A stretch of 64,000 bases of DNA from Patescibacteria group bacterium (GTDB taxonomy: Bacteria > Patescibacteriota > Patescibacteriia > 2-01-FULL-39-33). The stretch is taken from NCBI GenBank assembly GCA_038065695.1, contig JBBTQN010000016.1, positions 11,738 through 75,737 on the forward strand, given 5' to 3'. Under the pieces are notes generated by a model. It ran no database searches, was not told the origin of the DNA, and saw nothing but the letters and a program-made list of their open reading frames with translations. Shown piece after piece: positions 3,026 through 56,396 of the stretch. The translations under genes and the position numbers were made by a program. Every line of letters starts with the position of its first letter. Within the stretch, counting starts at the first letter, position 1.

Positions 3026-3165
3026 GCGTAGAGACGTTGTGCTGCAACGTCTCCGGAGCCGTAGCATCGCTACGGCTCTACCTAACAAAACCGCCCTTCA
3101 GCGGTTTCATTGTAGAGACGCGGCGGTGCCGCGTCTCAAAAGACGCCCCAGCGGGGCGTCTGCTA
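3026..3165. repeat. cluster of five consecutive GC-rich hairpins (agagacgttgtgctgcaacgtctc; gagccgtagcatcgctacggctc; aaaccgcccttcagcggttt; gagacgcggcggtgccgcgtctc; agacgccccagcggggcgtct)
   Basis: Perfect inverted repeats read directly. They belong to the gtagagacgc...gcgtctctac family, also seen at 27728-27755, 45568-45630, 54927-54995 and 60215-60244. Confidence 0.8.
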
Positions 3166-4989: not shown

Positions 4990-6165
4990 TTATTTTCCGA
5001 CGAAAATTATTTTCTCTTTGGTTCTCTTGGATATCTCAATGGTCTTTTTTATCATCTCCTTGGTAATATCGCGACCGCCCAAACCCATGATAACACCGGT
5101 GATTTTCGCTTGGCTTTGGCCATACAAAGCGCGCTTTATCTCGGTCGCTAAAATCCCTTCAGTGCCGAGTGAAATCGATTTGTCCAGCACGGCGATATTT
5201 TCGGCCTTAACCAACAATTTAATAATTTCATCGTCCGGAAACGGCCGGAAAGCGGTGATTTTTAAGATACCGATTGTGTTTTTGTGTTTTTGTGTTTTTG
5301 TGTTTTTGTGATATTCATCCACCGCCTCTTTCATTGTCCCTAAAACTGAACCCATCGCCACGATGACGGTCTTGGCGTTTTTATCGCCATAATATTCCGC
5401 CAAGTTAAGCGGCCGGCCGAATATTTTTTTAAAATTATCCATTTCCTTTTTAATCTCCGCTTTTGAGGCGGCCAAATCATCGTGCAAACTTTTCCTGATT
5501 TCAAAATAATGTTCCGGCGTGACCAGCGGCCCGAAAGTCAAAGGATTTTTTACATCCAATTTTTCCGAGGACTGATAAGCCGGCAAATATTTTTTGATTT
5601 TTTCCGCGGCTTCAATTTCCACCGGCTCCACCACATGAGTGAGAATAAAGCCGTCCAAATTCACCATCACCGGAAGCTCCAATTTCTCCCCCACTTTATA
5701 AGCCAAGATATGTAAGTCACAAACTTCCTGCACGGTCTCGCCAAAAAGCATTATCCAGCCGGCGTCGCGCATAATCATCACGTCCTGCTGATCATTCCAG
5801 ATATTTATCGGCGCCGAAACTGAACGATTGGCGTCGGTCATAACCACCGGGAGCCGCATGCCCGCCAGATTATAAAGCACTTCAGCCATAAGCAGTAACC
5901 CCTGCGAAGAAGTGGCGGTATAAGTCCTCACCCCGGCCGCCGACGCGCCCAAAACGATGGAAGCCGCGGCGAATTCGCTTTCCGCCCGCACATATTCAAA
6001 ATCCGCCTTGCCGGCCTCGCTGTTGGGCTGGCCATCGGCTTTCAGCTTGGCCAGTTCTTCCACAATATGCGTCTGCGGCGTGATGGGATACGCAGAAACC
6101 ACACCTACGCCGATATTATTAATTGTCTCGGCAATCGCCCGACTGCCTTCTAATATTTTTTTCAT
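4990..6165 (-). CDS. porA: pyruvate/2-oxoacid:ferredoxin oxidoreductase alpha subunit
   Basis: Reads MKKILEGSRAIAETINNIGVGVVSAYPITPQTHIVEELAKL..., which is the POR alpha domain architecture. Confidence 0.9.
   Translation of the reverse strand: MKKILEGSRAIAETINNIGVGVVSAYPITPQTHIVEELAKLKADGQPNSEAGKADFEYVRAESEFAAASIVLGASAAGVRTYTATSSQGLLLMAEVLYNLAGMRLPVVMTDANRSVSAPINIWNDQQDVMIMRDAGWIMLFGETVQEVCDLHILAYKVGEKLELPVMVNLDGFILTHVVEPVEIEAAEKIKKYLPAYQSSEKLDVKNPLTFGPLVTPEHYFEIRKSLHDDLAASKAEIKKEMDNFKKIFGRPLNLAEYYGDKNAKTVIVAMGSVLGTMKEAVDEYHKNTKTQKHKNTIGILKITAFRPFPDDEIIKLLVKAENIAVLDKSISLGTEGILATEIKRALYGQSQAKITGVIMGLGGRDITKEMIKKTIEISKRTKEKIIFVGK
5275..5310. repeat. 8-bp microsatellite (gtgttttt)x~4.5 inside porA coding sequence (encodes KNTKTQKHKNT in frame)
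   Basis: Direct reading of tgtgtttttgtgtttttgtgtttttgtgtttttgtg. Confidence 0.85.
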
Positions 6166-6177
6166 AAACCAAAAAGA

Positions 6178-27727: not shown

Positions 27728-27755
27728 GTAGAGACGCATTGCCATGCGTCTCTAC
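27728..27755. repeat. hairpin gtagagacgcattgccatgcgtctctac overlapping ruvX stop codon
   Basis: A perfect 10-bp stem. Member of the gtagagacgc hairpin family. Confidence 0.85.
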
Positions 27756-30738: not shown

Positions 30739-30919
30739 AAATATAATTTTAGTTTTTAATTTTTAAATAAATTCTAATTTTTAATGTTTAAAAATTAAAA
30801 CATTAAAAATTATTTAAAAATTAAAAATTGGAAATTAAAAATTTACAAGACACTTTTATTTTACTTTATTCTTCTTAAAAAAGAAAGCCCCTATTTAGGG
30901 GCTTCAACTGATTACCGAG
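30739..30919. repeat. AT-word palindromic spacer ('ttaaaaatt' words)
   Basis: The palindrome is taatttttaatgtttaaaaattaaaacattaaaaatta. Confidence 0.6.
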
Positions 30920-34163: not shown

Positions 34164-34562
34164 TTAATAGATTTCACAGATTACCTCGCCGCCCAATCCT
34201 GTTTTTTTCGCCTCTTTGCCGGTCATCAGTCCTTGCGAAGTCGAGACGATCGCTAAGCCGTAATTATTTAAGACTTTGGGCAAATTATCTTTGCTGGCGT
34301 AAACCCGCCGGCCCGGTTTGGAAATCTTCTTGATCGAAGAAATAGCCGGCTCATTGTCTTTATACTTAAGCTGGATATTAAAACCGCCGAATTTCTTGTC
34401 TGGACTATAATCCATCTCTTCAAAACCATTAATAAAGCCTTCCTTCTTTAAAATCTTAATAATTTCCAGTTTCATCTTGGAAAAAGGAACATAAACCTCT
34501 TCTTTTTTCACTCTTGAGGCATTTCTGATTCTGGTTAGCATGTCAGCGATTGGATCAGTCAT
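34164..34562 (-). CDS. rpsH: 30S ribosomal protein S8
   Basis: Reads [15 protein letters not shown]...TSQGLMT. Confidence 0.9.
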
Positions 34563-34676
34563 AATATTAAAAACTTAAAAATATAAAAACTTAAAAATAA
34601 ATTTTTATCTGGATTATTATTTACATTTAATATTCTCTTCATATTTTTATATTCTTGTATTTTTATATTTTTATTG
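34563..34676. repeat. AT-word palindromic spacer ('tataaaaat' words) between rpsH and S14
   Basis: The sequence is ataatattaaaaacttaaaaatataaaaacttaaaaataaattttt...tttttatattcttgtatttttatattttta. Confidence 0.6.
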
Positions 34677-34862
34677 TTACCATGAAGATTTGCCAATACC
34701 TGGGATTTGACCGCTGGTGGCCAGCTCCCGGAAACAAATGCGGCACAACTTAAACTTTCTCATATAACCATGCCGACGACCGCAACGCCAGCATCGGTTA
34801 ACCGATCGGGTAGAATATTTTTGTTTCTTTTTTGATCTCGCGATTTGCGCTTCGGTTGCCAT
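34677..34862 (-). CDS. rpsZ: 30S ribosomal protein S14 type Z
   Basis: Reads [24 protein letters not shown]. Confidence 0.9.
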
Positions 34863-39866: not shown

Positions 39867-39944
39867 AATTTTATTAGCTTATGGCCCATGGCATATGGCT
39901 TACGGTATTTTATAAAAGCCATAAGCCATATGCCATATGCCGCG
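39867..39944. repeat. long hairpin spacer (gcttatggcccatggcatatggcttacgg...ccataagccatatgccatatgcc) between rplB and rplW
   Basis: An inverted repeat with a ~20-bp stem. Confidence 0.7.
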
Positions 39945-41878: not shown

Positions 41879-42260
41879 ATTTTATATGATACCAATATAC
41901 GAATGTTTACCAATGATACGAATGTTGCTTTGGGAATAACTTAGAATGATTAGTAGCATTGGTATGATTCGTATATTAGTATCATATTTTATTTGTATAA
42001 AAAAACCTGGCCACATACCTTAAGCCAGATTCAACTTGTCGCGCCAAAAAGCACTACTTGTTAAATTCTATATCTTAATTTAGTATGTCGGTTTTCCCTT
42101 TTTAATCGATGTCGATTATGGAGGTTTTCCCCTTTTTGCTTCTATAATTACGCGGGAACTTTCTCCATTTTCTTCATTGATTATAATTCTCTACGAATTA
42201 CGAATTTTTACGAATTTACGAATATTTGTATATTCGTACCGATTCGTAATTCGTAGAAGG
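41879..42260. other. 382-bp structured spacer between rpsJ and rplC (word palindromes; terminator-like hairpin ctggcttaaggtatgtggccag + T-run on minus strand at ~42002-42040)
   Basis: Direct reading. There are no convincing ORFs, and the region contains direct repeats of ggttttccc(c)ttttt. Confidence 0.5.
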
Positions 42261-42678: not shown

Positions 42679-43869
42679 TTATTTAATGATTTTAGTGACG
42701 ACACCCGCGCCCACCGTGTGTCCACCCTCTCTAATCGCGAATTTCATTTTTTCTTCCATCGCCACCGGTTTGCCCAGTTTCACTTTCAAATTATTGATGG
42801 TATCGCCCGGCATCACCATTTCCACGCCTTCGGCGAGTTCAATCTCACCGGTCACATCGGTGGTGCGGACATAAAACTGCGGCTTGTAGCCCTTGAAAAA
42901 CGGTTTGTGCCGGCCGCCTTCCTCTTTGGACAGGACATAAACTTCCGCTTCAAAATCGGTATGCGGGGTGATTGAGCCCGGCTTGGCGAGTACTTGGCCG
43001 CGCTCCACTTCTTCTTTTCTGATGCCGCGGAGCAAAATGCCGGCATTATCGCCCGCTCGGCCTTCATCTAATGACTTGTTAAACATTTCAATGCCGGTGA
43101 CCACGGTCTTTTTGGTTTCGCCCAAACCGACGATTTCCACTTCTTCATTGAGCTTGACCAGGCCTCTTTCAATCCGGCCGGTCACGACCGTGCCGCGGCC
43201 TTCAATGGAAAAAACATCTTCAATCGGCATTAAAAACGGCTGGTCAGTCGCTCTCTGCGGCTCGGGAATATAAGTATCCAAAGCTTCCATCAGTTTCATC
43301 ACCGGCTCGGCGTCCGGACCGGTCGGATCCGCCAGCGCTTTCAAAGCGCTGCCTCGGATAATCGGCGTAGCATCGCCGGGGAATTCATATTTTTTGAGTA
43401 AGTCGCGGATTTCTTCTTCCACTAAATCAATCAAAGACGGATCGTCCACTTGGTCAACTTTATTGATGAAGACCACGATATAAGGCACGCCGACTTGTCT
43501 CGCGAGCAAGATGTGCTCTCTGGTCTGGGGCATCGGGCCGTCAGTCGCGGCCACGACCAAAATCGCGCCGTCCATCTGCGCCGCGCCGGTAATCATGTTT
43601 TTAATGTAGTCAGCATGACCCGGGCAGTCCACATGCGCGTAGTGCCTTTTTTCGGTTTCATACTCCACATGAGCGGTCGCGATCGTTATACCGCGCGCTT
43701 TTTCTTCCGGCGCCGCGTCAATCTGGTCAACTGACTTATCCTGCGCTCTAAACCCTTTAGCTCTTAAAATCTTTAGGATCGCCGCCGTCAAAGTCGTTTT
43801 GCCATGGTCCACATGGCCGATGGTGCCCACATTGATATGGGGCTTGCTTCGGTCAAATTGTTCTGCCAT
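42679..43869 (-). CDS. tuf: elongation factor Tu
   Basis: Reads [23 protein letters not shown]...DCPGHADY...NKVD. Confidence 0.95.
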
Positions 43870-44060
43870 TTTTTTAAACCTTTGGTTGAGGCCCCCGCCA
43901 AAGGCGGGTTTTATCCAGACCTCACTCTTTATTTATAAAAACACAAGAATATAAGAAAAAATATAAAAACACAGAAACCCAAATATTTTTATGTTTTTGT
44001 GTTTTATATCTTTATAATTATAGCATATTTTAAATATTTAGCAAGAGCAGTTATCCCTAA

Positions 44061-44459
44061 TTATTCCACCGTCTCAAAATAAAGCGGGTCTTCCTCGTTT
44101 TTTTCCTTATTTTGGCTAAAATCTTCGGAAGATATTGGGTTTTCCGGCTCGGCCGGCGAGCCAAAATCCGACCCGGCTCCCTCTGTCCAATCTGGCTTAT
44201 TACGACCATTTTCCGTTAAATCAGCCGGAAAATCAGCTTGGCCAAAGGGCAAATCTTGGTCTTTATCCTCCCACCAATTACGCCAATCATCGTCGTTACG
44301 GCCAATTTCAGCCAAAAAATCATCAGGGGAAAAGTCATCGTCAGAAACCATTTTTTCATAATCGGAAAAAGGCATAATCACAAAACTCGGCTCGCCATTT
44401 TCATCCAAAATAATGGCTTTATCGCCGGTTTTTTTAATGAGAGAGAAAAGTTTTTTCAT
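44061..44459 (-). CDS. hypothetical acidic protein; N-terminus resembles Phd/YefM antitoxin fold
   Basis: Reads KAIILDENGEPSFVIMPFSDYEKMV, followed by a D/E/W-rich tail. Confidence 0.35.
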   Translation of the reverse strand: MKKLFSLIKKTGDKAIILDENGEPSFVIMPFSDYEKMVSDDDFSPDDFLAEIGRNDDDWRNWWEDKDQDLPFGQADFPADLTENGRNKPDWTEGAGSDFGSPAEPENPISSEDFSQNKEKNEEDPLYFETVE

Positions 44460-44514
44460 AGGATTTTAGGTTACCCACGAATCTACAAATCTTGCTACGA
44501 ATTTACAAATCGAT

Positions 44515-44612
44515 TTCCCCTCCTTTCTAAGGAGGGGTTAGGGGAGGTTATGAAAGTCACGAAAATTGGCGTGAGTTTCAAAACCCCTCCTAACCTCCCC
44601 TTTGAAAGGGGA
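44515..44612. repeat. GGGGAGG-family composite palindromic element (hairpin-arm-hairpin-arm-hairpin)
   Basis: The sequence is cccctcctttctaaggagggg-ttaggggagg-ttatgaaagtcacgaaaattggcgtgagtttcaaaa-cccctcctaa-cctcccctttgaaaggggagg. Confidence 0.85.
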
Positions 44613-44720
44613 GGAATTTAACGAATATTCGTAAATTCGTAAAAATTCGTAATTCGTAGTTATTTTTATCTAAATTTAGCTAATTTTTATAAATAAAATA
44701 TTAATAATTTCTCTACGGGG

Positions 44721-44757
44721 TTGACTTTTTTATTAGATATGGTATAAATGGTATAAT
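44721..44757 (+). promoter_or_regulatory. sigma70-like promoter (TTGACT-16/17-TATAAA/ATAAAT; duplicated -10 ggtataaatggtataattgg)
   Basis: ttgact at 44721-44726. The downstream gene has a strong SD, aagaggag, 8 nt before its ATG at 44843. Confidence 0.55.
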
Positions 44758-44842
44758 TGGGTGTTAAGTCAGCGCTTGTTTTGATTGGCAAAATGAGCGA
44801 GCTGACTATGAAAATAGGACATTAACAAAGAGGAGAAAAAAG

Positions 44843-45232
44843 ATGATGTCACCTTCTGAACAAAAACGATTTGTTGCTGTTGCTATTCTGTGCTTACTTT
44901 TTACTGCCGTCGTTGGCGGGACAGTAGGATACCATCATGGTCTTGCGGATGGTAAAAACGCTCTACAAGAAACCGCGCCGGTGGAAACCGCTCAAAAAGA
45001 AATGACGGAAAAGATTCCTCAATTCTTCCCAATGAACCCACCAAATATGGAAGTGGTGAGTGAATGGAGCAATAAATTATCCCCCGTTCCTTTTTCTCAT
45101 GCTAATTATGGCGACAACGCCAAATCCAGATATGTGAAAATTGATGGGAGGATGGCAGTGCAGTCAGTAGAATACCAAGCGATGTCTATTGCCTTCATCC
45201 CGCCGGATTGCGGCGAAAGCGAAGGACAGTGA
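44843..45232 (+). CDS. hypothetical membrane-anchored protein (foreign composition, strong SD)
   Basis: An N-terminal TM segment (FVAVAILCLLFTAVVGG). GC is higher than in the host genes. Confidence 0.5.
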   Translation: MMSPSEQKRFVAVAILCLLFTAVVGGTVGYHHGLADGKNALQETAPVETAQKEMTEKIPQFFPMNPPNMEVVSEWSNKLSPVPFSHANYGDNAKSRYVKIDGRMAVQSVEYQAMSIAFIPPDCGESEGQ

Positions 45233-45268
45233 ACGGAAAACGGAAAAACAGGAAAGGAGAAAAAACAA

Positions 45269-45451
45269 ATGGACAAATCACTCACAGAGATGGAGTGCGT
45301 GGAAGAAATCGGTTTTGACGATCTCCAACAGAGATTGGAAAAACTGGTTAATCTTTTGAAAGAGCGTGAAACGGGATGTTTCACTTGGCACGAGATGCTC
45401 AACGAGCAGTTGAAAAAGCTCCACGGTCTTCTGTGTCCGCTCTTTTCTTAA
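45269..45451 (+). CDS. hypothetical small protein (strong SD ggaaaggag)
   Basis: ORF only. Confidence 0.4.
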   Translation: MDKSLTEMECVEEIGFDDLQQRLEKLVNLLKERETGCFTWHEMLNEQLKKLHGLLCPLFS

Positions 45452-45485
45452 GTAGCACCTTCCCTTGTAAAACACAATCAACATC

Positions 45486-45532
45486 CGACCCGCCTTGAGA
45501 CAAAGCTGTCTCTCGGCCGGGTCTTTTTTTTG
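45486..45532 (+). terminator. rho-independent terminator (gacccgcc...ggccgggtc + T8)
   Basis: A hairpin followed by tttttttt at 45524-45531. Confidence 0.7.
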
Positions 45533-45567
45533 TTTTGAAAAGAACATTCTTGTCTTCGATGTTCCGT

Positions 45568-45630
45568 TGTAGAGACGGATTGCATCCGTCTCCGACGCCC
45601 AATTGAGACGCATGGCAATGCGTCTCTACA
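45568..45630. repeat. nested hairpins of the gtagagacgc family (tgtagagacggattgcatccgtctcc...gagacgcatggcaatgcgtctctaca)
   Basis: Perfect stems. The inner loop 'catggcaatg' is the reverse complement of the loop at 27728-27755. Confidence 0.8.
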
Positions 45631-45739
45631 TTTTCATCTTATAATATTTATAAAATAGTGGCAAGATATTGAAAACAACCCCGCAAATGCAGGGTTGCCT
45701 TTGGTAGTAAAAATTATTTCAAATTCATGATTTATTCGC

Positions 45740-46018
45740 TTAAAATAAATCATCATGCGATCCGGTAGCCACTAATTCCAAAACCAAAATGTCATGCCGG
45801 TAGCGATAGATTAAAAGCCAATCAGGCGCAATATGACATTCCCAGCAATCCTTAAAATTGCCGACTAATTTATGATTGCAATTTTTATCCGGAACATCTT
45901 TTCTTTCAATCAATAAGCTAATAATTGCTTTCAAATTATTAAATAAATCAGGATCTGATTTTTTTAATTTACGATATTGCCGCTTGAATTTGTTTGTATA
46001 CCAGATTGAATAAGCCAT
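45740..46018 (-). CDS. yafQ: type II toxin YafQ/RelE family mRNA interferase
   Basis: Reads KFKRQYRKL...HKLVGNFKDCWECHIAPDWLLIYRYRHDILVLELVATGSHDDLF. Confidence 0.8.
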   Translation of the reverse strand: MAYSIWYTNKFKRQYRKLKKSDPDLFNNLKAIISLLIERKDVPDKNCNHKLVGNFKDCWECHIAPDWLLIYRYRHDILVLELVATGSHDDLF

Positions 46019-46021
46019 AAA

Positions 46022-46306
46022 CTAGGATAAGAGCTGTTTTTCTAATTCCTTTAAACTCCTTGCCGGCTTACGACGACCGGATTTGTAAGCTGCCTCCATT
46101 GCAGCAATTTCGGCTAAAATCTTTTTTTCTTGTTCTGGCGTAAAACCATTTTCGGTCGTTAGTAAAAAGGGCACGCCCTGATCGCGAACCACTTTGGCCA
46201 AATAAATCTTGATCCCTGTGCTTAAATCAAGGCCCAAAGAATTAAAAATTTTCGCGGCTTGGCGCTTGATTTTTTTATCCACTCTGGCTTGGACTAATTC
46301 AGTCAT
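46022..46306 (-). CDS. dinJ: type II antitoxin DinJ/RelB family
   Basis: Reads ARVDKKIKRQAAKIFNSLGLDLSTGIKIYLAKVVRDQGVPFLL, 3 nt upstream of yafQ. Confidence 0.8.
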   Translation of the reverse strand: MTELVQARVDKKIKRQAAKIFNSLGLDLSTGIKIYLAKVVRDQGVPFLLTTENGFTPEQEKKILAEIAAMEAAYKSGRRKPARSLKELEKQLLS

Positions 46307-46423
46307 AAAATTTAATATTATTAATATATTCATATTGTATTACATTGTATAGACATTGTCAATAGAGTTATCCACAACCAAAAAATCCCCCGCCAGAACG
46401 GAAGATTTTTTTATTATAATAAC

Positions 46424-48556
46424 CTATTTCCTTTCCGTGGCTTTGCCGGCTCGTCCTTCCACAATCTTCATTTCCACATTCTTCGGCACTTCGCTGTATT
46501 TCAAAAATTCCATCGTGGAAGAAGCGCGGCCTTGGGTGAGCGAGCGCAGCACCGTGGCGTAGCCGAACATTTCCGCGAGCGGCACTTCGGCGGAAATCAC
46601 TTTGACTTTGGCCGAGCCGATTCCCCTTTCATCCATATTGCCGATGATGGCGCGGCGCGAATTCAAATCGCCGATGACATCGCCCATGAATTGTTCGGGC
46701 GTGACGGCTTCAATTTTCATAATCGGTTCCAAAATCACCGGACCGGCTTGCTTGACCGCGGCTTGAAACGCCAGGGAGCCGGCAATTTTAAACGCCGCTT
46801 CGGAAGAGTCCACTTCGTGATACGAGCCGTCATAAACCGTCACCCGAATATCAATCAAAGGATAGCCGGCGATGACACCTCTATCCATCGCCTCACGCGC
46901 GCCTTTTTCAATCGGCTTAATGTATTCTTTGGGAATCACGCCGCCTTTGATTTCGTCAACAAATTCAAAAATCTTGTTCGGCTCGGACGGCTCAACTTTA
47001 AGCCAACAATGGCCGTATTGTCCCCGGCCGCCGGACTGACGGATATATTTGCCTTCGGCTGCCGCCATTTTTTTGATCGTCTCTTTGTAAGCGACTTGCG
47101 GCGCGCCGACATTGGCCTCCACTTTGAACTCGCGCTTCATGCGCTCAACGATGATATCCAAATGAAGCTCGCCCATGCCGGAAATGATCGTCTGCATTGT
47201 TTCTTCATCGGTCCGGACGCGGAAGGTCGGGTCTTCTTCGGAAAGCTTGGACAAAGCGATACCCATTTTTTCTTGGTCGGCTTTGGTCTTGGGCTCAATC
47301 GCGATATCAATGACCGGTTCGGGGAAAGTGATCCTTTCCAAAAATATCGGGTGGCTCGGGTCGGACAAAGTGTCGCCGGTAGTCGTGCCTTTGAGCCCCA
47401 CGATGGCGGCGATTTCTCCGGCATACACTTCCTCAATGTCTTCGCGAGAGTTGGCGTGCATGCGCAGGATCCGGCCGACTCTTTCTTTATTGCCGTTGGT
47501 ATTGTTTAAAATATAAGAGCTGGATTTAAGGACGCCGCTGTAAACGCGGTAAAAAATAAGCTTGCCGACGAACGGGTCGGTCGCCACTTTGAAAGCCAAG
47601 CCGACCAAAGGCGCGTCGTCTTTCACTGCCACTTTTATTTCTTTACTCTCGTCGTCAACATCGTGGCCGATAGGCGCGGCGATATCCAAAGGAGACGGCA
47701 AAAATTCGTCCACCGCGTCCAGTAAGAATTGGACGCCTTTATTTTTTAAAGCCGAGCCGCAAAGAATCGGTACAATTTTATTTTTTATGGTCGCCTGACG
47801 CAAAACCCGCTTCAAATCGGCGATGGGAATTTCTTCGCCCGCCAAATATTTTTCGGTCAATTCATTATCATGTCCGGAAATCGCTTCCACTAATTTCGCC
47901 CGATATTCTTTCGCTCTTTCTACCTCATTGGCGGGAATTTCGGTGTCTTCCCATTTCGTCCCCAACTCATCTTGGTAAATGCGCGCTTTCATCTCAAAAA
48001 GGTCAATGATGCCCTTAAAAGTTTCGGCCGCGCCGATCGGAATCTGAATCGGGTGGGCGTTTGGGGTAAGCCGGTCGTGAATGGTCGCGAGGTCATGATA
48101 AAAATCCGCGCCCATCCGGTCCATCTTATTGATGAAGCCGATTTTCGGCACGTGATACTTTTCCGATTGCCGCCAGACAGTCTCGGACTGCGGCTCCACG
48201 CCGGCCACGCCGTCAAAAACAATCACCCCGCCGTCCAAGACGCGGAGCGACCGCTCCACTTCGGCGGTGAAGTCAACATGGCCCGGCGTGTCAATGATAT
48301 TGATTTGAATGTCGCCCCCGCCCAGCCACTCGGCGTTCGGCCAAAAGCAAGTCGTCGCGGCCGAGGTTATGGTGATGCCGCGCTCTTGCTCTTGTTCCAT
48401 CCAATCCATCGTCGCTTCGCCTTCATGGACCTCACCCATTTTGTGTTTTTTGCCGGTGTAAAACAAAACCCGCTCGGTGACGGTCGTCTTTCCAGCGTCG
48501 ATGTGAGCGATGATGCCAATATTTCTGATTTTTTCCAGGGGTTCTAAACGAGGCAT
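46424..48556 (-). CDS. fusA: elongation factor G
   Basis: Reads [26 protein letters not shown]...DTPGHVDF. Confidence 0.95.
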
Positions 48557-49829: not shown

Positions 49830-50459
49830 TTACAAAAATCTGGCCAAGAAATTTAAAATTAAATTAAAGAAAGACCCCAAAATGCTCCTAGGCAAAAAAC
49901 TGTCCAAAATCACCAAAACTAAAAGAATCCAAGGGCCATTGATGGAAAATTTATATTTAAACTCATCAAATCGGCTGGGTAATAAGCTGAACAGCACCTT
50001 TGAGCCGTCCAAAGGCGGAATCGGAATCAGGTTGAAAACCATTAAAATGGTGTTGACTAAAACCAACAAAAACAAAAAATTAGTCAAAAGATTATACGGG
50101 CCGAGAGCGGGAGCGACGAATTTTAGGATAATGCCGAATATAAAAATCCCCAAGAAATTTGAAAATGGCCCGGCCAGAGAGATTACACCCTCGGCTAAAC
50201 GAGGATTTTTGGTATTACCCAAGTTCACCGGCACCGGCTTGGCCCAGCCAAAGCCGACAAAAACCAGCATTAAAAATCCCAACGGGTCTAAGTGCGCCAA
50301 AGGGTTTAAGGTCATTCGCCCCGCCTGCTCGGCCGTGCTGTCGCCGAAAAAACGCGCGGCGGCAGCGTGGGAAAATTCATGAATGGTCAAAGTGACCAAG
50401 ATGGCGAGGATCCAAGTGACGAAAAAAATCGGGTCGGAAAATATCCAATTGATGGGCAT
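49830..50459 (-). CDS. site-2 protease family (M50) membrane metalloprotease
   Basis: Carries the TIHEFSHAAAA HExxH motif in a TM helix, plus LIPIPPLDG. Confidence 0.75.
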   Translation of the reverse strand: MPINWIFSDPIFFVTWILAILVTLTIHEFSHAAAARFFGDSTAEQAGRMTLNPLAHLDPLGFLMLVFVGFGWAKPVPVNLGNTKNPRLAEGVISLAGPFSNFLGIFIFGIILKFVAPALGPYNLLTNFLFLLVLVNTILMVFNLIPIPPLDGSKVLFSLLPSRFDEFKYKFSINGPWILLVLVILDSFLPRSILGSFFNLILNFLARFL

Positions 50460-50460
50460 G

Positions 50461-50700
50461 CGATGAAGTTGAAAGTTTATAAAGTCTGTAAAGTCAAAAG
50501 TCTGACGACGACTTTATTTTATATTAACATTATTGACTTATTTTGACAAATATGATAAGATTATATCCATAAACAAATATCTTGAGAATTTTTAATTTCC
50601 AATTTTTAATTTTTAAATAATTTTTAATGATTTAATTTTTAAAAATTAGAAATTAGATCATTATTTAAAAATTACAAAATTAAAAATTAAAAATTTCATT
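50461..50700. repeat. AT-word palindromic spacer ('tataaagtc' then 'ttaaaaatt' words)
   Basis: Direct reading. Confidence 0.6.
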
Positions 50701-52019: not shown

Positions 52020-52619
52020 TTAAATCTTTCTCCTTGCTTTGTATGCCAGGTATTTCTCCAAATATCTTTCTTCATTGTACTTATATGAAGGATTAAAATC
52101 AGCAATAATTATCGAACCATGACTCCTTATGGTTTTTTGCGTATACTTACTCCCATAATCAAGCATTTTTAATTTTCCGTCATCAATAGAAAAATTCCTT
52201 GGGTTCATCCAGTGGTGATTATCGCTACCAAAAAACGGATTGTCGTCATTTGAATCAAATAATATCTCTGTCGCCTGACTCAAAATTGCTCCCCATTCTT
52301 TTACTTGTTCTTTTCCCGCTAATTGGATATTGAAAAATCCAAACAAAGAAAAAAATGTCGGCTGCAAAATAGGATGTCTGGTTTTTAAATAAAAAATAAA
52401 TTCCCGCCAATTTTTTAAGATACCGCCAAATAAATATGACTTGACATCACCCATATCTTCTTTTTGAAGGGGCGGATTACCTCCAAAATAACGCTGGAGG
52501 TTTCTTTTTGTCAAAGCAATAGAAGTTAAAAAACGAATCATCGGCAGTTTAAAAACTAATCCCAATTTAGGAAACACGAATACAACCCGTGTCTTTCCTT
52601 TGCAAATATACATAGCCAA
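52020..52619 (-). CDS. hypothetical protein
   Basis: ORF only. A weak kinase-like HHWMNPRNFSIDDGKLKMLDYGS segment. Confidence 0.35.
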   Translation of the reverse strand: MAMYICKGKTRVVFVFPKLGLVFKLPMIRFLTSIALTKRNLQRYFGGNPPLQKEDMGDVKSYLFGGILKNWREFIFYLKTRHPILQPTFFSLFGFFNIQLAGKEQVKEWGAILSQATEILFDSNDDNPFFGSDNHHWMNPRNFSIDDGKLKMLDYGSKYTQKTIRSHGSIIIADFNPSYKYNEERYLEKYLAYKARRKI

Positions 52620-55309: not shown

Positions 55310-56396
55310 TTATTCCTTAATTTTTCCTCTTAAATAGCTCTCCACAAAATCATCAATCTCCCCGTTCAAGACGCGGTCCACATCGGCAGTTTCGTGTTCG
55401 GTCCGGTGATCTTTGACTAATTTATACGGATTGAGGACATAAGAACGCGCTTGATTGCCCCATTCGGCTTTCTGATAGTCCCCTTTCATCACCTTTACTC
55501 TTTCGCCTTCCTCGGTTTCATAATATTTTAAAAGTTTTGCCTTCAAAATCCTGATGGCGCTCTTCTTGTTTTGGAGCTGGGAGCGTTCGTTTTGGCATTT
55601 GGCGGCGAGGCCGGTGGGAAGGTGAGTGATTCGTACCGCCGAGTCAGTCGTGTTGACGCTCTGTCCGCCGTGACCCGAAGCGCGCATCACTTCAATTTTT
55701 AAATCCTCGTCTTTGAGCTCAATCTCCTTAATCCCCTCCGATTCCGGCAAAACCTCCACCAAAGCGAATGAGGTGTGGCGCATTTTTTCCGCGTCAAACG
55801 GCGAAATGCGCACCAAACGATGGACGCCATTCTCGGATTTTAGCCAGCCGTAAGCCCAGCGGCCGCTGATTTCTATCGTCGCGCTCTTTAGTCCCGCTTC
55901 CGCGCCCGGCGTTTCATCCACCACCTTCGCCTCAAAATTGTGCCGCTCGCAAAACCTCAAATACAGCCGCCGGAGCATTTGCGCCCAGTCCTGCGCGTCC
56001 ACCCCGCCGGTGCCGGCGTGGATGGAGACGACCACGCTTCCCTCGTCATAACGCCCGGAAAATAAAACCAAGAATTCCAATTCTTTGAATTCTTGGATTA
56101 GTTTTGACAGTTTTTTTCCAATTTCTTCCGACAGGCCGCTGTCATCCATCTGGGCCAGCTCGCCGAGTTCATCAACTTCATTTTTTAAATTTTCCCAACT
56201 CGCCAAATCTGATTTTAAATTTTCATACCTTTGGCTGATGACCCTGGCTTTTTCCGGCTCCGCCCAAAAATCGGAGTGAGAAATTTCCTTCTCCAATTCG
56301 GCGATTTCCTTTTTTACTTTATCCAAGTCAAAGCAACCTCCAAATTCCAGAGATTTGACGCTTCAAATCTTTAATTTGACTCGATGTCTCATTCAT
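55310..56396 (-). CDS. prfB: peptide chain release factor 2 with programmed +1 ribosomal frameshift (CTT TGA C at 56333-56327, SD-like GGAGG 3 nt upstream)
   Basis: ORF0 MNETSSQIKDLKRQISGIWRLL stops at TGA 56330-56328. The +1 frame continues DLDKVKKEIAEL...RISPFDAE (SPF motif)...GGQSVNTTDSAVR...GQH-like. Confidence 0.85.

Follow-up and report, generated by a model that had tools for sequence, protein, structure and literature searches.

In the str operon of Escherichia coli, the gene for EF-Tu can also be transcribed from secondary tufA promoters that lie inside fusA, the gene for EF-G. In the toxin of the E. coli toxin-antitoxin (TA) pair DinJ-YafQ, the residues H50, H63, D67, and H87 are catalytic and F91 is the C-terminal phenylalanine. 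The layout of the E. coli str operon has been described (PMC6735719), in a Saccharibacterium the tuf promoter is strong and functional on its own (PMC10633639), and about half of the Parcubacteria lack an anti-Shine-Dalgarno (anti-SD) motif (PMC9297842). Here we analyze the interval between fusA and tuf in a 64,000-nt stretch of a Patescibacteria group bacterium (contig JBBTQN010000016.1; hereafter the window), which holds a dinJ-yafQ module, a cassette of two plus-strand genes led by Shine-Dalgarno (SD) sites, and a gene that we call X. The minus strand reads rpsL, rpsG, fusA, dinJ, yafQ, X, tuf, rpsJ, and rplC, and the two cassette genes, orf129 and orf60, lie on the plus strand between yafQ and X. 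The spacer is bordered upstream by fusA (46424-48556, minus strand, 710 aa) and downstream by tuf (42679-43869, minus strand, 396 aa), whose Pfam domains are listed on the public contig with proteins identical to those of the region (86 kb, Hainich groundwater metagenome ERZ1292629, Hain_H43). An earlier note on this DNA had seen an insert separating the two genes, and this is borne out: they lie 2,554 bp apart here, versus ∼30-170 bp (plus a single case of 402 bp) in ∼33 non-Patescibacteria loci among the 80 loci retrieved by an EF-G scan of 185,579 species genomes. In Patescibacteria-type loci the gap ranges from 457 to 5,066 bp.

We propose that the interval is probably a layered accessory site and not a single foreign island. 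The resident layer would be X, placed directly upstream of tuf across the Patescibacteria; onto it would have come a convergent, SD-led unit encoding a rare membrane-anchored family and a 60-aa protein, inherited together with close relatives; and the newest layer would be the ∼0.9 kb between the fusA stop codon and the cassette terminator, which carries the ∼0.65-kb dinJ-yafQ. The earlier note had allowed that relatives might share the gene content of this junction: they do for X, in part for the cassette, and not for the TA pair. X does not vary, the cassette is limited to close relatives, and the TA pair is absent in one relative (L099; L-numbers label the fetched comparison loci) and occupies different loci in other genomes. 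For every part, the nearest homologues stem from Patescibacteria or groundwater metagenomes, and we therefore see no sign of an origin outside this group.

X and the promoter of tuf

The Patescibacteria-specific gene X (44061-44459, minus strand) encodes a 132-aa protein with a Phd/YefM-like N-domain, an acidic disordered tail, and the C-terminal motif EEDxxYFExVE. Searching with the single sequence found only two homologous proteins, whereas a profile made from its syntenic relatives recovered 461 protein clusters (E ≤ 1e-3), all unnamed; four diverse members, examined in their genomic context, map to the fusA-tuf interval. When all fetched loci were scanned with an HMM at the same threshold, X was recovered from this interval on the window's own contig (fetched as L002 and L095). 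In 10/10 other lineages with both genes on the contig, X immediately precedes tuf: L007 (3897-4319), L008 (12087-12419), L011 (13396-13689), L013 (5729-6010), L047 (12742-13098), L087 (6001-6366), L089 (6001-6399), L091 (6001-6273), L093 (6001-6489), and L010, in which an 81-aa look-alike below the cut-off was recognized by eye. X also follows fusA in L009 and L020, whose contigs end before tuf. The family ranges from Falkowbacteria-like groups to Saccharibacteria and is absent from ∼65 non-Patescibacteria loci; it was not found in L012, L016, and L019, nor in the Gracilibacteria and Peregrinibacteria loci, and is therefore widespread among Patescibacteria, not universal. Five loci (L007, L011, L012, L018, and L020) are titled 'uncultured Gammaproteobacteria bacterium', probably wrongly, as their str loci are of the Patescibacteria type; their EF-G is 61-71% identical to that of the window, and L007, L011, and L020 carry X.

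Members of the family share an N-terminal module (..KKTGDkaIIlD..YVxM..DYExL), a mid helix (GLTE..LLDKINRDIAIWK, also written GLTE.ELLDKINRDIAIWK), and an acidic linker followed by the C-terminal EEDRYYFEPVE. The N-terminus of the window protein matches PhdYeFM_antitox at E 2.9e-5, under the gathering score (24.2 bits versus 29.8 for PF02604, and 17.8 versus 20.8 for TIGR01552), and 38 of 58 family members match PF02604 individually at E ≤ 0.01, the best at 1.4e-7. AlphaFold2 is confident only for residues 1-40 of the window protein, a helix-strand-strand-helix arrangement, and for the mid helix as well in a canonical member. When the model was compared with the PDB in Foldseek, no entry reached E ≤ 0.001 and the weaker matches were half-CBS-like and due to chance; the family profile matched no PDB sequence, and the literature searched contained no link between such a protein and Patescibacteria str loci. 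The earlier note had described an acidic protein with a Phd/YefM-like N-terminus carried by the island: the resemblance stands, if below the curated cut-offs, and the role as cargo does not, given the place of X beside tuf in all ten lineages. Judged by its synteny, X is a conserved, uncharacterized resident gene.

Could X be a working antitoxin, a second one for YafQ or one for a toxin encoded elsewhere, such as an EF-Tu-targeting Doc-type kinase? The homology of its N-domain to Phd/YefM, its antitoxin-like disordered acidic tail with conserved short motifs, and its position next to tuf speak for this, all the more as Doc, the partner of Phd, inactivates EF-Tu. Yet no toxin gene adjoins X in the window or in 12 other loci, where X follows fusA or cargo and is followed by tuf, the simplest loci reading just fusA-X-tuf; moreover, the size and fixed synteny of the family are unlike those of mobile TA modules, and the window protein stays under the Pfam and NCBIfam cut-offs. 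We therefore consider this role unlikely.

The codons of X carry a second signal. In 10/10 canonical X genes (those of L007, L008, L009, L011, L013, L020, L087, L089, L091, and L093), the conserved Leu-Thr is encoded by TTG ACA, and 17 nt further on Asp-Lys-Ile is encoded by GAT AAA/AAG/ACA ATA/ATT, which together yield a near-consensus promoter-like TTGACA-17-TAAAAT, TAAGAT, or TACAAT (e.g., at 6148-6176 in both L087 and L089, 4050-4078 in L007, and 6154-6182 in L093). Elsewhere in the same genes TTG makes up 26% of the Leu codons and ACA 22% of the Thr codons, and all four Thr codons occur at the invariant Thr of KTGD; the chance of a fixed TTG ACA is ∼6e-7, counting five independent lineages only. 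The Saccharibacteria gene of L047 lacks the mid motif and has the same hexamers in the X-tuf spacer. The window X is also devoid of embedded hexamers, and its tuf is predicted to rely on a promoter in the X-tuf spacer (TTGCTA-16-TGnTATAAT, 44017-44044, minus strand; 10/12 match with an extended -10), 17 nt past the X stop codon and with equivalents after X in L087, L089, and L013. Hence tuf appears to be driven by its own predicted promoter, which in most relatives is embedded in the coding sequence of X; the stand-alone activity of a Saccharibacterium tuf promoter (PMC10633639) agrees with this.

Such an arrangement would fit the cargo that other Patescibacteria hold in the fusA-tuf spacer, always between fusA and X: N-methyl pilin-like proteins in L011 (12186-13325) and, two of them, in L013 (2726-5519), two LamG proteins in L091 (3557-5846), a giant secreted protein of 1,251 aa with PG_binding_1 (putative peptidoglycan-binding) and a DKNYY protein in L019 (2229-7085), and a histidine phosphatase with a GNAT protein in L012 (12085-13555). 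In the window, a hairpin with U6 right after the fusA stop codon (46380-46411, minus strand; -27 kcal/mol, z -3.5) is a probable fusA terminator. With fusA ending in its own predicted terminator and the predicted tuf promoter lying downstream of the insertion point, genes inserted between fusA and X would leave EF-Tu expression uncut. The fusA-X spacer thus probably tolerates cargo because tuf has its own promoter, independent of read-through from fusA. The position of the TA pair between two elongation-factor genes is best explained by a permissive accessory site and not by a special link to translation. The fusA-tuf junction, closed in other bacteria, is open in Patescibacteria, where it has repeatedly gathered accessory genes, often for the cell surface, and the fusA-X spacer could serve genetic work in this group as a neutral or permissive place for insertions.

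As for X itself, a tentative possibility is that it represents a toxin-less branch of Phd/YefM fixed in the str locus, its frame carrying the main tuf promoter and its tail binding a component of translation or the tuf promoter. The partner of the tail might then be, speculatively, EF-Tu, EF-G, the ribosome, or the tuf promoter, which would couple the supply of EF-Tu to X. What has been observed is the synteny and a promoter signal at the level of codons; any binding or regulatory role is speculation. The X family with its embedded promoter is nevertheless the part of the locus worth following, as a testable handle on how reduced genomes express their most abundant translation factor, while the TA pair adds little, being a standard module at an unusual address.

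The dinJ-yafQ module

The yafQ gene (45740-46018, minus strand) encodes a 92-aa toxin of the RelE superfamily, already annotated by NCBI as a YafQ family toxin, which matches Pfam YafQ_toxin PF15738 (9.9e-29; 99.9 bits, cut-off 30), NCBIfam RelE_StbE TIGR02385 (77.1 bits, cut-off 27.9), and the PDB entries 9lew_B (1.5e-11) and 4ml2_A (1.6e-8). Directly upstream, with 3 nt from its stop codon to the yafQ start, lies dinJ (46022-46306, minus strand), whose public gene call is 94 aa and whose longest open reading frame (ORF) reaches 46333; its RelB/DinJ-family product matches Pfam RelB PF04221 (1.1e-9; 38.5 bits, cut-off 22.4), NCBIfam RelB_DinJ TIGR02384 (59.4 bits, cut-off 45.65), and the DinJ structure 4q2u_A (2e-7). 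The assignment of the pair to DinJ/RelB and YafQ/RelE in the earlier note thus passes curated profile cut-offs and finds matches among solved DinJ-YafQ structures. Taken by itself, the pair is an ordinary, already annotated YafQ-family module. In a BLASTP alignment with E. coli YafQ (33% identity), H49, H62, D66, H88, and F92 of the window protein fall on H50, H63, D67, H87, and F91. The toxin scores 61.8 bits against the strict NCBIfam YafQ model TIGR00053, under its cut-off of 87.25, and is therefore best described as a YafQ-like toxin within the RelE/StbE superfamily and not as a close YafQ orthologue.

The regulatory DNA of the module is also recognizable. A predicted promoter (TTGACA-17-TACAAT, 46334-46362, minus strand; 11/12 match) is conserved in the related modules of L101, L102, and L103; three ACAATGT/ACAATAT repeats, a probable DinJ operator, cover it from -35 to -10 and are kept in all four modules. 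At 46368-46376 (plus strand), 6 nt upstream of the -35 hexamer, lies the 9-mer TTATCCACA, a perfect match to the DnaA-box consensus. Its complement TGTGGATAA is invariant in the four aligned modules, which differ in genomic context (positions ∼780-790 in L101, ∼225-235 in L102, and ∼4640-4650 in L103); this invariance hints at a possible DnaA-linked control of the TA promoter. A 13-bp hairpin followed by UUUU, 40 nt past the yafQ stop codon (45672-45701, minus strand; centroid -19.3 kcal/mol), is the probable terminator of the unit, and a hairpin of differing sequence also precedes each of the related modules. With its own conserved promoter region, a hairpin with U6 before it, and a hairpin with U4 after yafQ, the module looks transcriptionally self-contained. 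From this gene content, the kept residues, and the regulatory DNA we infer the usual activity: dimers of DinJ would bind the ACAATGT repeats over the promoter and repress it, the C-terminal part of DinJ would wrap and inhibit YafQ, and upon degradation of DinJ, YafQ would cleave ribosome-bound mRNA through its His/His/Asp/His set.

The related modules sit at unrelated places. The closest YafQ homologue (73% identity) lies after greA in L101, the next (71%) between unrelated genes at a third locus in L102, and a more distant one (52%) after an aminotransferase gene on a Magasanikbacteria-type contig, L103. The DNA similarity of these modules to the window runs from 46394/46377 to 45740, the yafQ stop codon, and no further, and the regulatory region upstream of dinJ is conserved in 4/4 modules. 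With a GC content of 0.323, yafQ falls on the 3rd percentile of 63 host genes and is the sole GC outlier of the region. Target-site duplications were sought around the unit and none was convincing. Judging from these contigs, dinJ-yafQ is demonstrably a discrete mobile unit of ∼0.65 kb that includes its own predicted promoter and operator, and its occurrence at unrelated loci in other Patescibacteria makes it the mobile, newest layer of the interval.

Since chromosomal TA pairs often decay, the module might instead be a decaying or domesticated remnant without toxin activity, kept as a spacer or regulator, and the score under the strict, equivalog-type YafQ model would fit this. Yet neither ORF is truncated, the five catalytic and C-terminal residues are all kept, the promoter and operator are conserved over four modules, and the 3-nt spacing of dinJ and yafQ is retained, all of which makes a remnant improbable.

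The plus-strand cassette and the probable order of insertion

The first gene of the cassette, orf129 (44843-45232, plus strand), encodes a small protein with an N-terminal membrane anchor and a core of three motifs, MNPP..EVMSEW / RYVKIDGRLA / FVPPDCGESE; the second, orf60 (45269-45451, plus strand), encodes a 60-aa protein, is led by AAAGGAG 9 nt upstream, and is called on public contigs. As the earlier note had it, both ORFs have strong SD sites, AGGAG lying 7-9 nt upstream of each, and AGGAG precedes 6/6 cassette starts across the window, L098, and L099. Only four homologues of orf129 occur among 1.84 billion representatives; at 36-48% identity, they agree with it in length, in the anchor, and in the three motifs. 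Homologues are present in L098 and, as two in tandem, in L099. A metagenome scan with the family added just one distant homologue, placed at an unrelated locus of another Patescibacteria genome (L100), and no further fusA-tuf contexts. HMM searches of the two ORFs yielded no family: orf129 has no match in Pfam, NCBIfam, or PHROG, and orf60 none in these, in the phage searches, or in PADLOC. A phage or viral origin of the cassette was considered and rejected, as the IMG/VR scan, the tblastn search against 50,697 phage records, and the PHROGs were all without a match for either protein.

The unit is bracketed by predicted signals. The terminator proposed earlier is found as a stem at 45487-45523 (-23.5 kcal/mol, z -4.1) followed by U8 (45487-45531 overall, plus strand), and its core CGCCTTGAGAC...GTCTCTCGGC is common to the window and L099. 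The promoter claim, TTGACT-17-TATAAT-like at 44721-44757 (plus strand), holds in part: TTGACT is present at 44721-44726, followed by TATAAA at a spacing of 16 nt and then by TGGTATAAT, with 25 nt to TATAAT, and a spacing of 17 nt to TATAAT occurs at the aligned place in L098. Downstream, a leader (44762-44842) with a 41-nt hairpin (44767-44807, plus strand; -20.3 kcal/mol, z -3.7) is better conserved with respect to L098 (370-448) than the protein (∼48% aa identity). Being conserved beyond the protein and without an Rfam match, this leader could be regulatory. The purine skew switches to the plus strand at the cassette, which by all these signs is a real, probably separately transcribed, SD-led unit. 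Its membrane anchor and the company of surface-protein cargo at the fusA-tuf site suggest that its product may be a small cell-envelope protein. That these ORFs are no genes at all, but non-coding DNA or the back of an overlapping 111-aa minus-strand ORF (45278-45613) with AGGAG by chance, is hardly credible: the missing Pfam, NCBIfam, and PHROG matches and the four homologues in all would allow it, yet these homologues keep length, anchor, motifs, and SD sites at the stated identities, the skew follows the plus strand, and a predicted promoter and terminator enclose the unit.

The SD sites set the cassette apart from its host. Among the 84 crude ORF calls made for the window, only ∼10 show any 4-nt SD-like match, in line with the earlier observation that host genes mostly lack one; orf129 is the only ATG-start call among the 84 with a match of at least 5 nt, and nearly all ATG starts of the window are preceded by A/T-rich leaders. 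This comparison rests on the gene leaders of the window, the 3' end of the host 16S rRNA lying outside it. A few host ORFs, with uncertain start codons, have a GGAGG-type sequence upstream of their longest-ORF starts (e.g., 52020-52619 and 55310-56326, both minus strand), which may mean that the organism retains some SD recognition.

The relative age of the layers is suggested by two relatives. In L099, whose fusA DNA is 82% identical to that of the window, two tandem orf129 paralogues converge on the fusA stop codon with the terminator core abutting it, and there is no TA pair at this junction; the stretch at ∼45533-46423 is therefore extra in the window. The homologue in L098 shares the upstream repeats, promoter, leader hairpin, and SD site with the window. 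As part of the layered reading, and with the same likelihood, we take the cassette to be older than the TA pair and to have been present in the common ancestor with these close relatives. Assembly chimerism at repeats was rejected as the main explanation, since the fusA-dinJ-yafQ join is present in four independent short-read contigs and the full arrangement in several long assemblies.

Besides the score of YafQ under the strict model, several points weigh against the layered reading. The insertion order rests on two short contigs, L098 (890 bp) and L099 (1.6 kb), and a loss of the TA pair in L099 is a possible alternative to a later insertion in the window. The cassette-X and cassette-TA joins are seen only in longer assemblies, because short-read contigs break at repeats, including the one at 45568-45630. 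The window X has lost the mid motif of its family and may thus be drifting, and we found no promoter in the window that would serve X itself. All promoters and terminators of the region are predictions from sequence, and a generic promoter scan was unenriched (10 found versus 7.1 expected in shuffles). None of the five proteins of the region matches a PADLOC defence-system model.

The last of these points bears equally on the opposite view, that of the earlier note, in which all 2.3 kb, the Phd-like protein included, arrived by horizontal transfer as a single island with addiction or defence cargo. In its favor are the large and gene-dense gap, the presence of a TA pair, an SD use unlike that of the host, and repeats at the edges. 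Against it, the position of X is conserved across Patescibacteria, the cassette occurs without the TA pair in L099 and the TA pair without the cassette elsewhere, the region shows neither an integrase or transposase ORF nor a tRNA nor boundary repeats peculiar to an island, and the composition is host-like. The compositional scan, which the earlier note proposed, places the tetranucleotide distance of the region between the 44th and 82nd percentile, with only the GC content of yafQ atypical and with the high-GC fusA and tuf themselves as the outliers. Likewise, the higher GC ascribed to the plus-strand genes holds with respect to the neighboring spacers only, orf129 and orf60 falling on the 57th and 44th percentile of the 63 host genes. 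With X resident and the cassette and TA pair distributed differently among relatives, a single island is very improbable.

The repeats said to flank the island are indeed located there, but their families are scattered through the intergenic spacers of the window and mark no island ends. The spacer at 44476-44659 consists of TACGAAT-type arrays (44476-44510 and 44618-44659) around a 98-nt palindrome (44515-44612; -61 kcal/mol, z -7.2); the same elements precede the cassette in L098, and the TACGAAT-type family has 14 matches in the window versus 4.6 expected. The twin hairpin GTAGAGACG at 45568-45630 (-32.8 kcal/mol, z -5.7) belongs to a genome-wide family with further copies at 3028-3081 and 27728-27755. 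More generally, most intergenic spacers of this genome are built of imperfect palindromes of 7-8-nt tandem units (TACGAAT, TAAAAAT, AAGCCAT, and others) and of GTAGAGACG twin hairpins, further examples being 30742-30845, 34562-34679, 39877-39941, 41884-42257, and 50583-50698. Rfam searches (gathering cut-offs over the window, E-values over 43800-46500) returned only tRNAs and chance-level matches, and no family for the leader, palindrome, or hairpins. Apart from the interval, a 209-aa ORF at 49830-50459 (minus strand) is a homologue of Peptidase_M50 (E 1e-13), as found at the same place in relatives; public calls give two opposite-strand ORFs without a family match instead, probably a mis-call.

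Comparison with described systems

Each part of the interval has a described counterpart from which it departs. Residues 1-40 of X match profile positions 12-52 of the Phd/YefM antitoxins (PF02604; Phd-Doc, YefM-YoeB), and its tail is likewise disordered and acidic with short conserved motifs. Unlike these antitoxins, X has no partner toxin gene, is fixed at the str locus, lacks the first strand of the fold, and scores under the curated cut-offs, and both its mid motif (GLTE..LLDKINRDIAIWK) and EEDRYYFEPVE are family-specific.

The TA module resembles E. coli DinJ-YafQ (PDB 4q2u, 4ml0, 4ml2) in gene order, antitoxin first, in protein sizes (94 and 92 aa), in its RelB/DinJ and YafQ profiles, in the kept His/His/Asp/His set with a C-terminal Phe, and in having its own predicted promoter with repeated operator-like motifs. 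It differs in the low identity of its YafQ (33%), with its activity being presumed from sequence, and in its location between fusA and tuf of a host that hardly uses SD sites. The E. coli dinJ promoter carries a LexA box, whereas the window promoter has the DnaA-box-like 9-mer in its stead.

With respect to translation initiation, the host genes of the window resemble those of SD-poor Parcubacteria without an anti-SD motif (PMC9297842), with A/T-rich leaders and almost no SD sites. A strong AGGAG is retained, in contrast, by the cassette genes and equally by the homologous genes of two relatives. A conserved SD-led cassette among SD-less host genes amounts to a natural, small-scale experiment on how translation starts in Patescibacteria.

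Finally, as in the str operon of E. coli, tuf would be transcribable from promoters inside the coding sequence of the upstream gene. The promoter-bearing gene is, however, the lineage-specific X and not fusA, and in Patescibacteria fusA and tuf lie 0.5-5 kb apart, separated by a spacer that has repeatedly accepted cargo.

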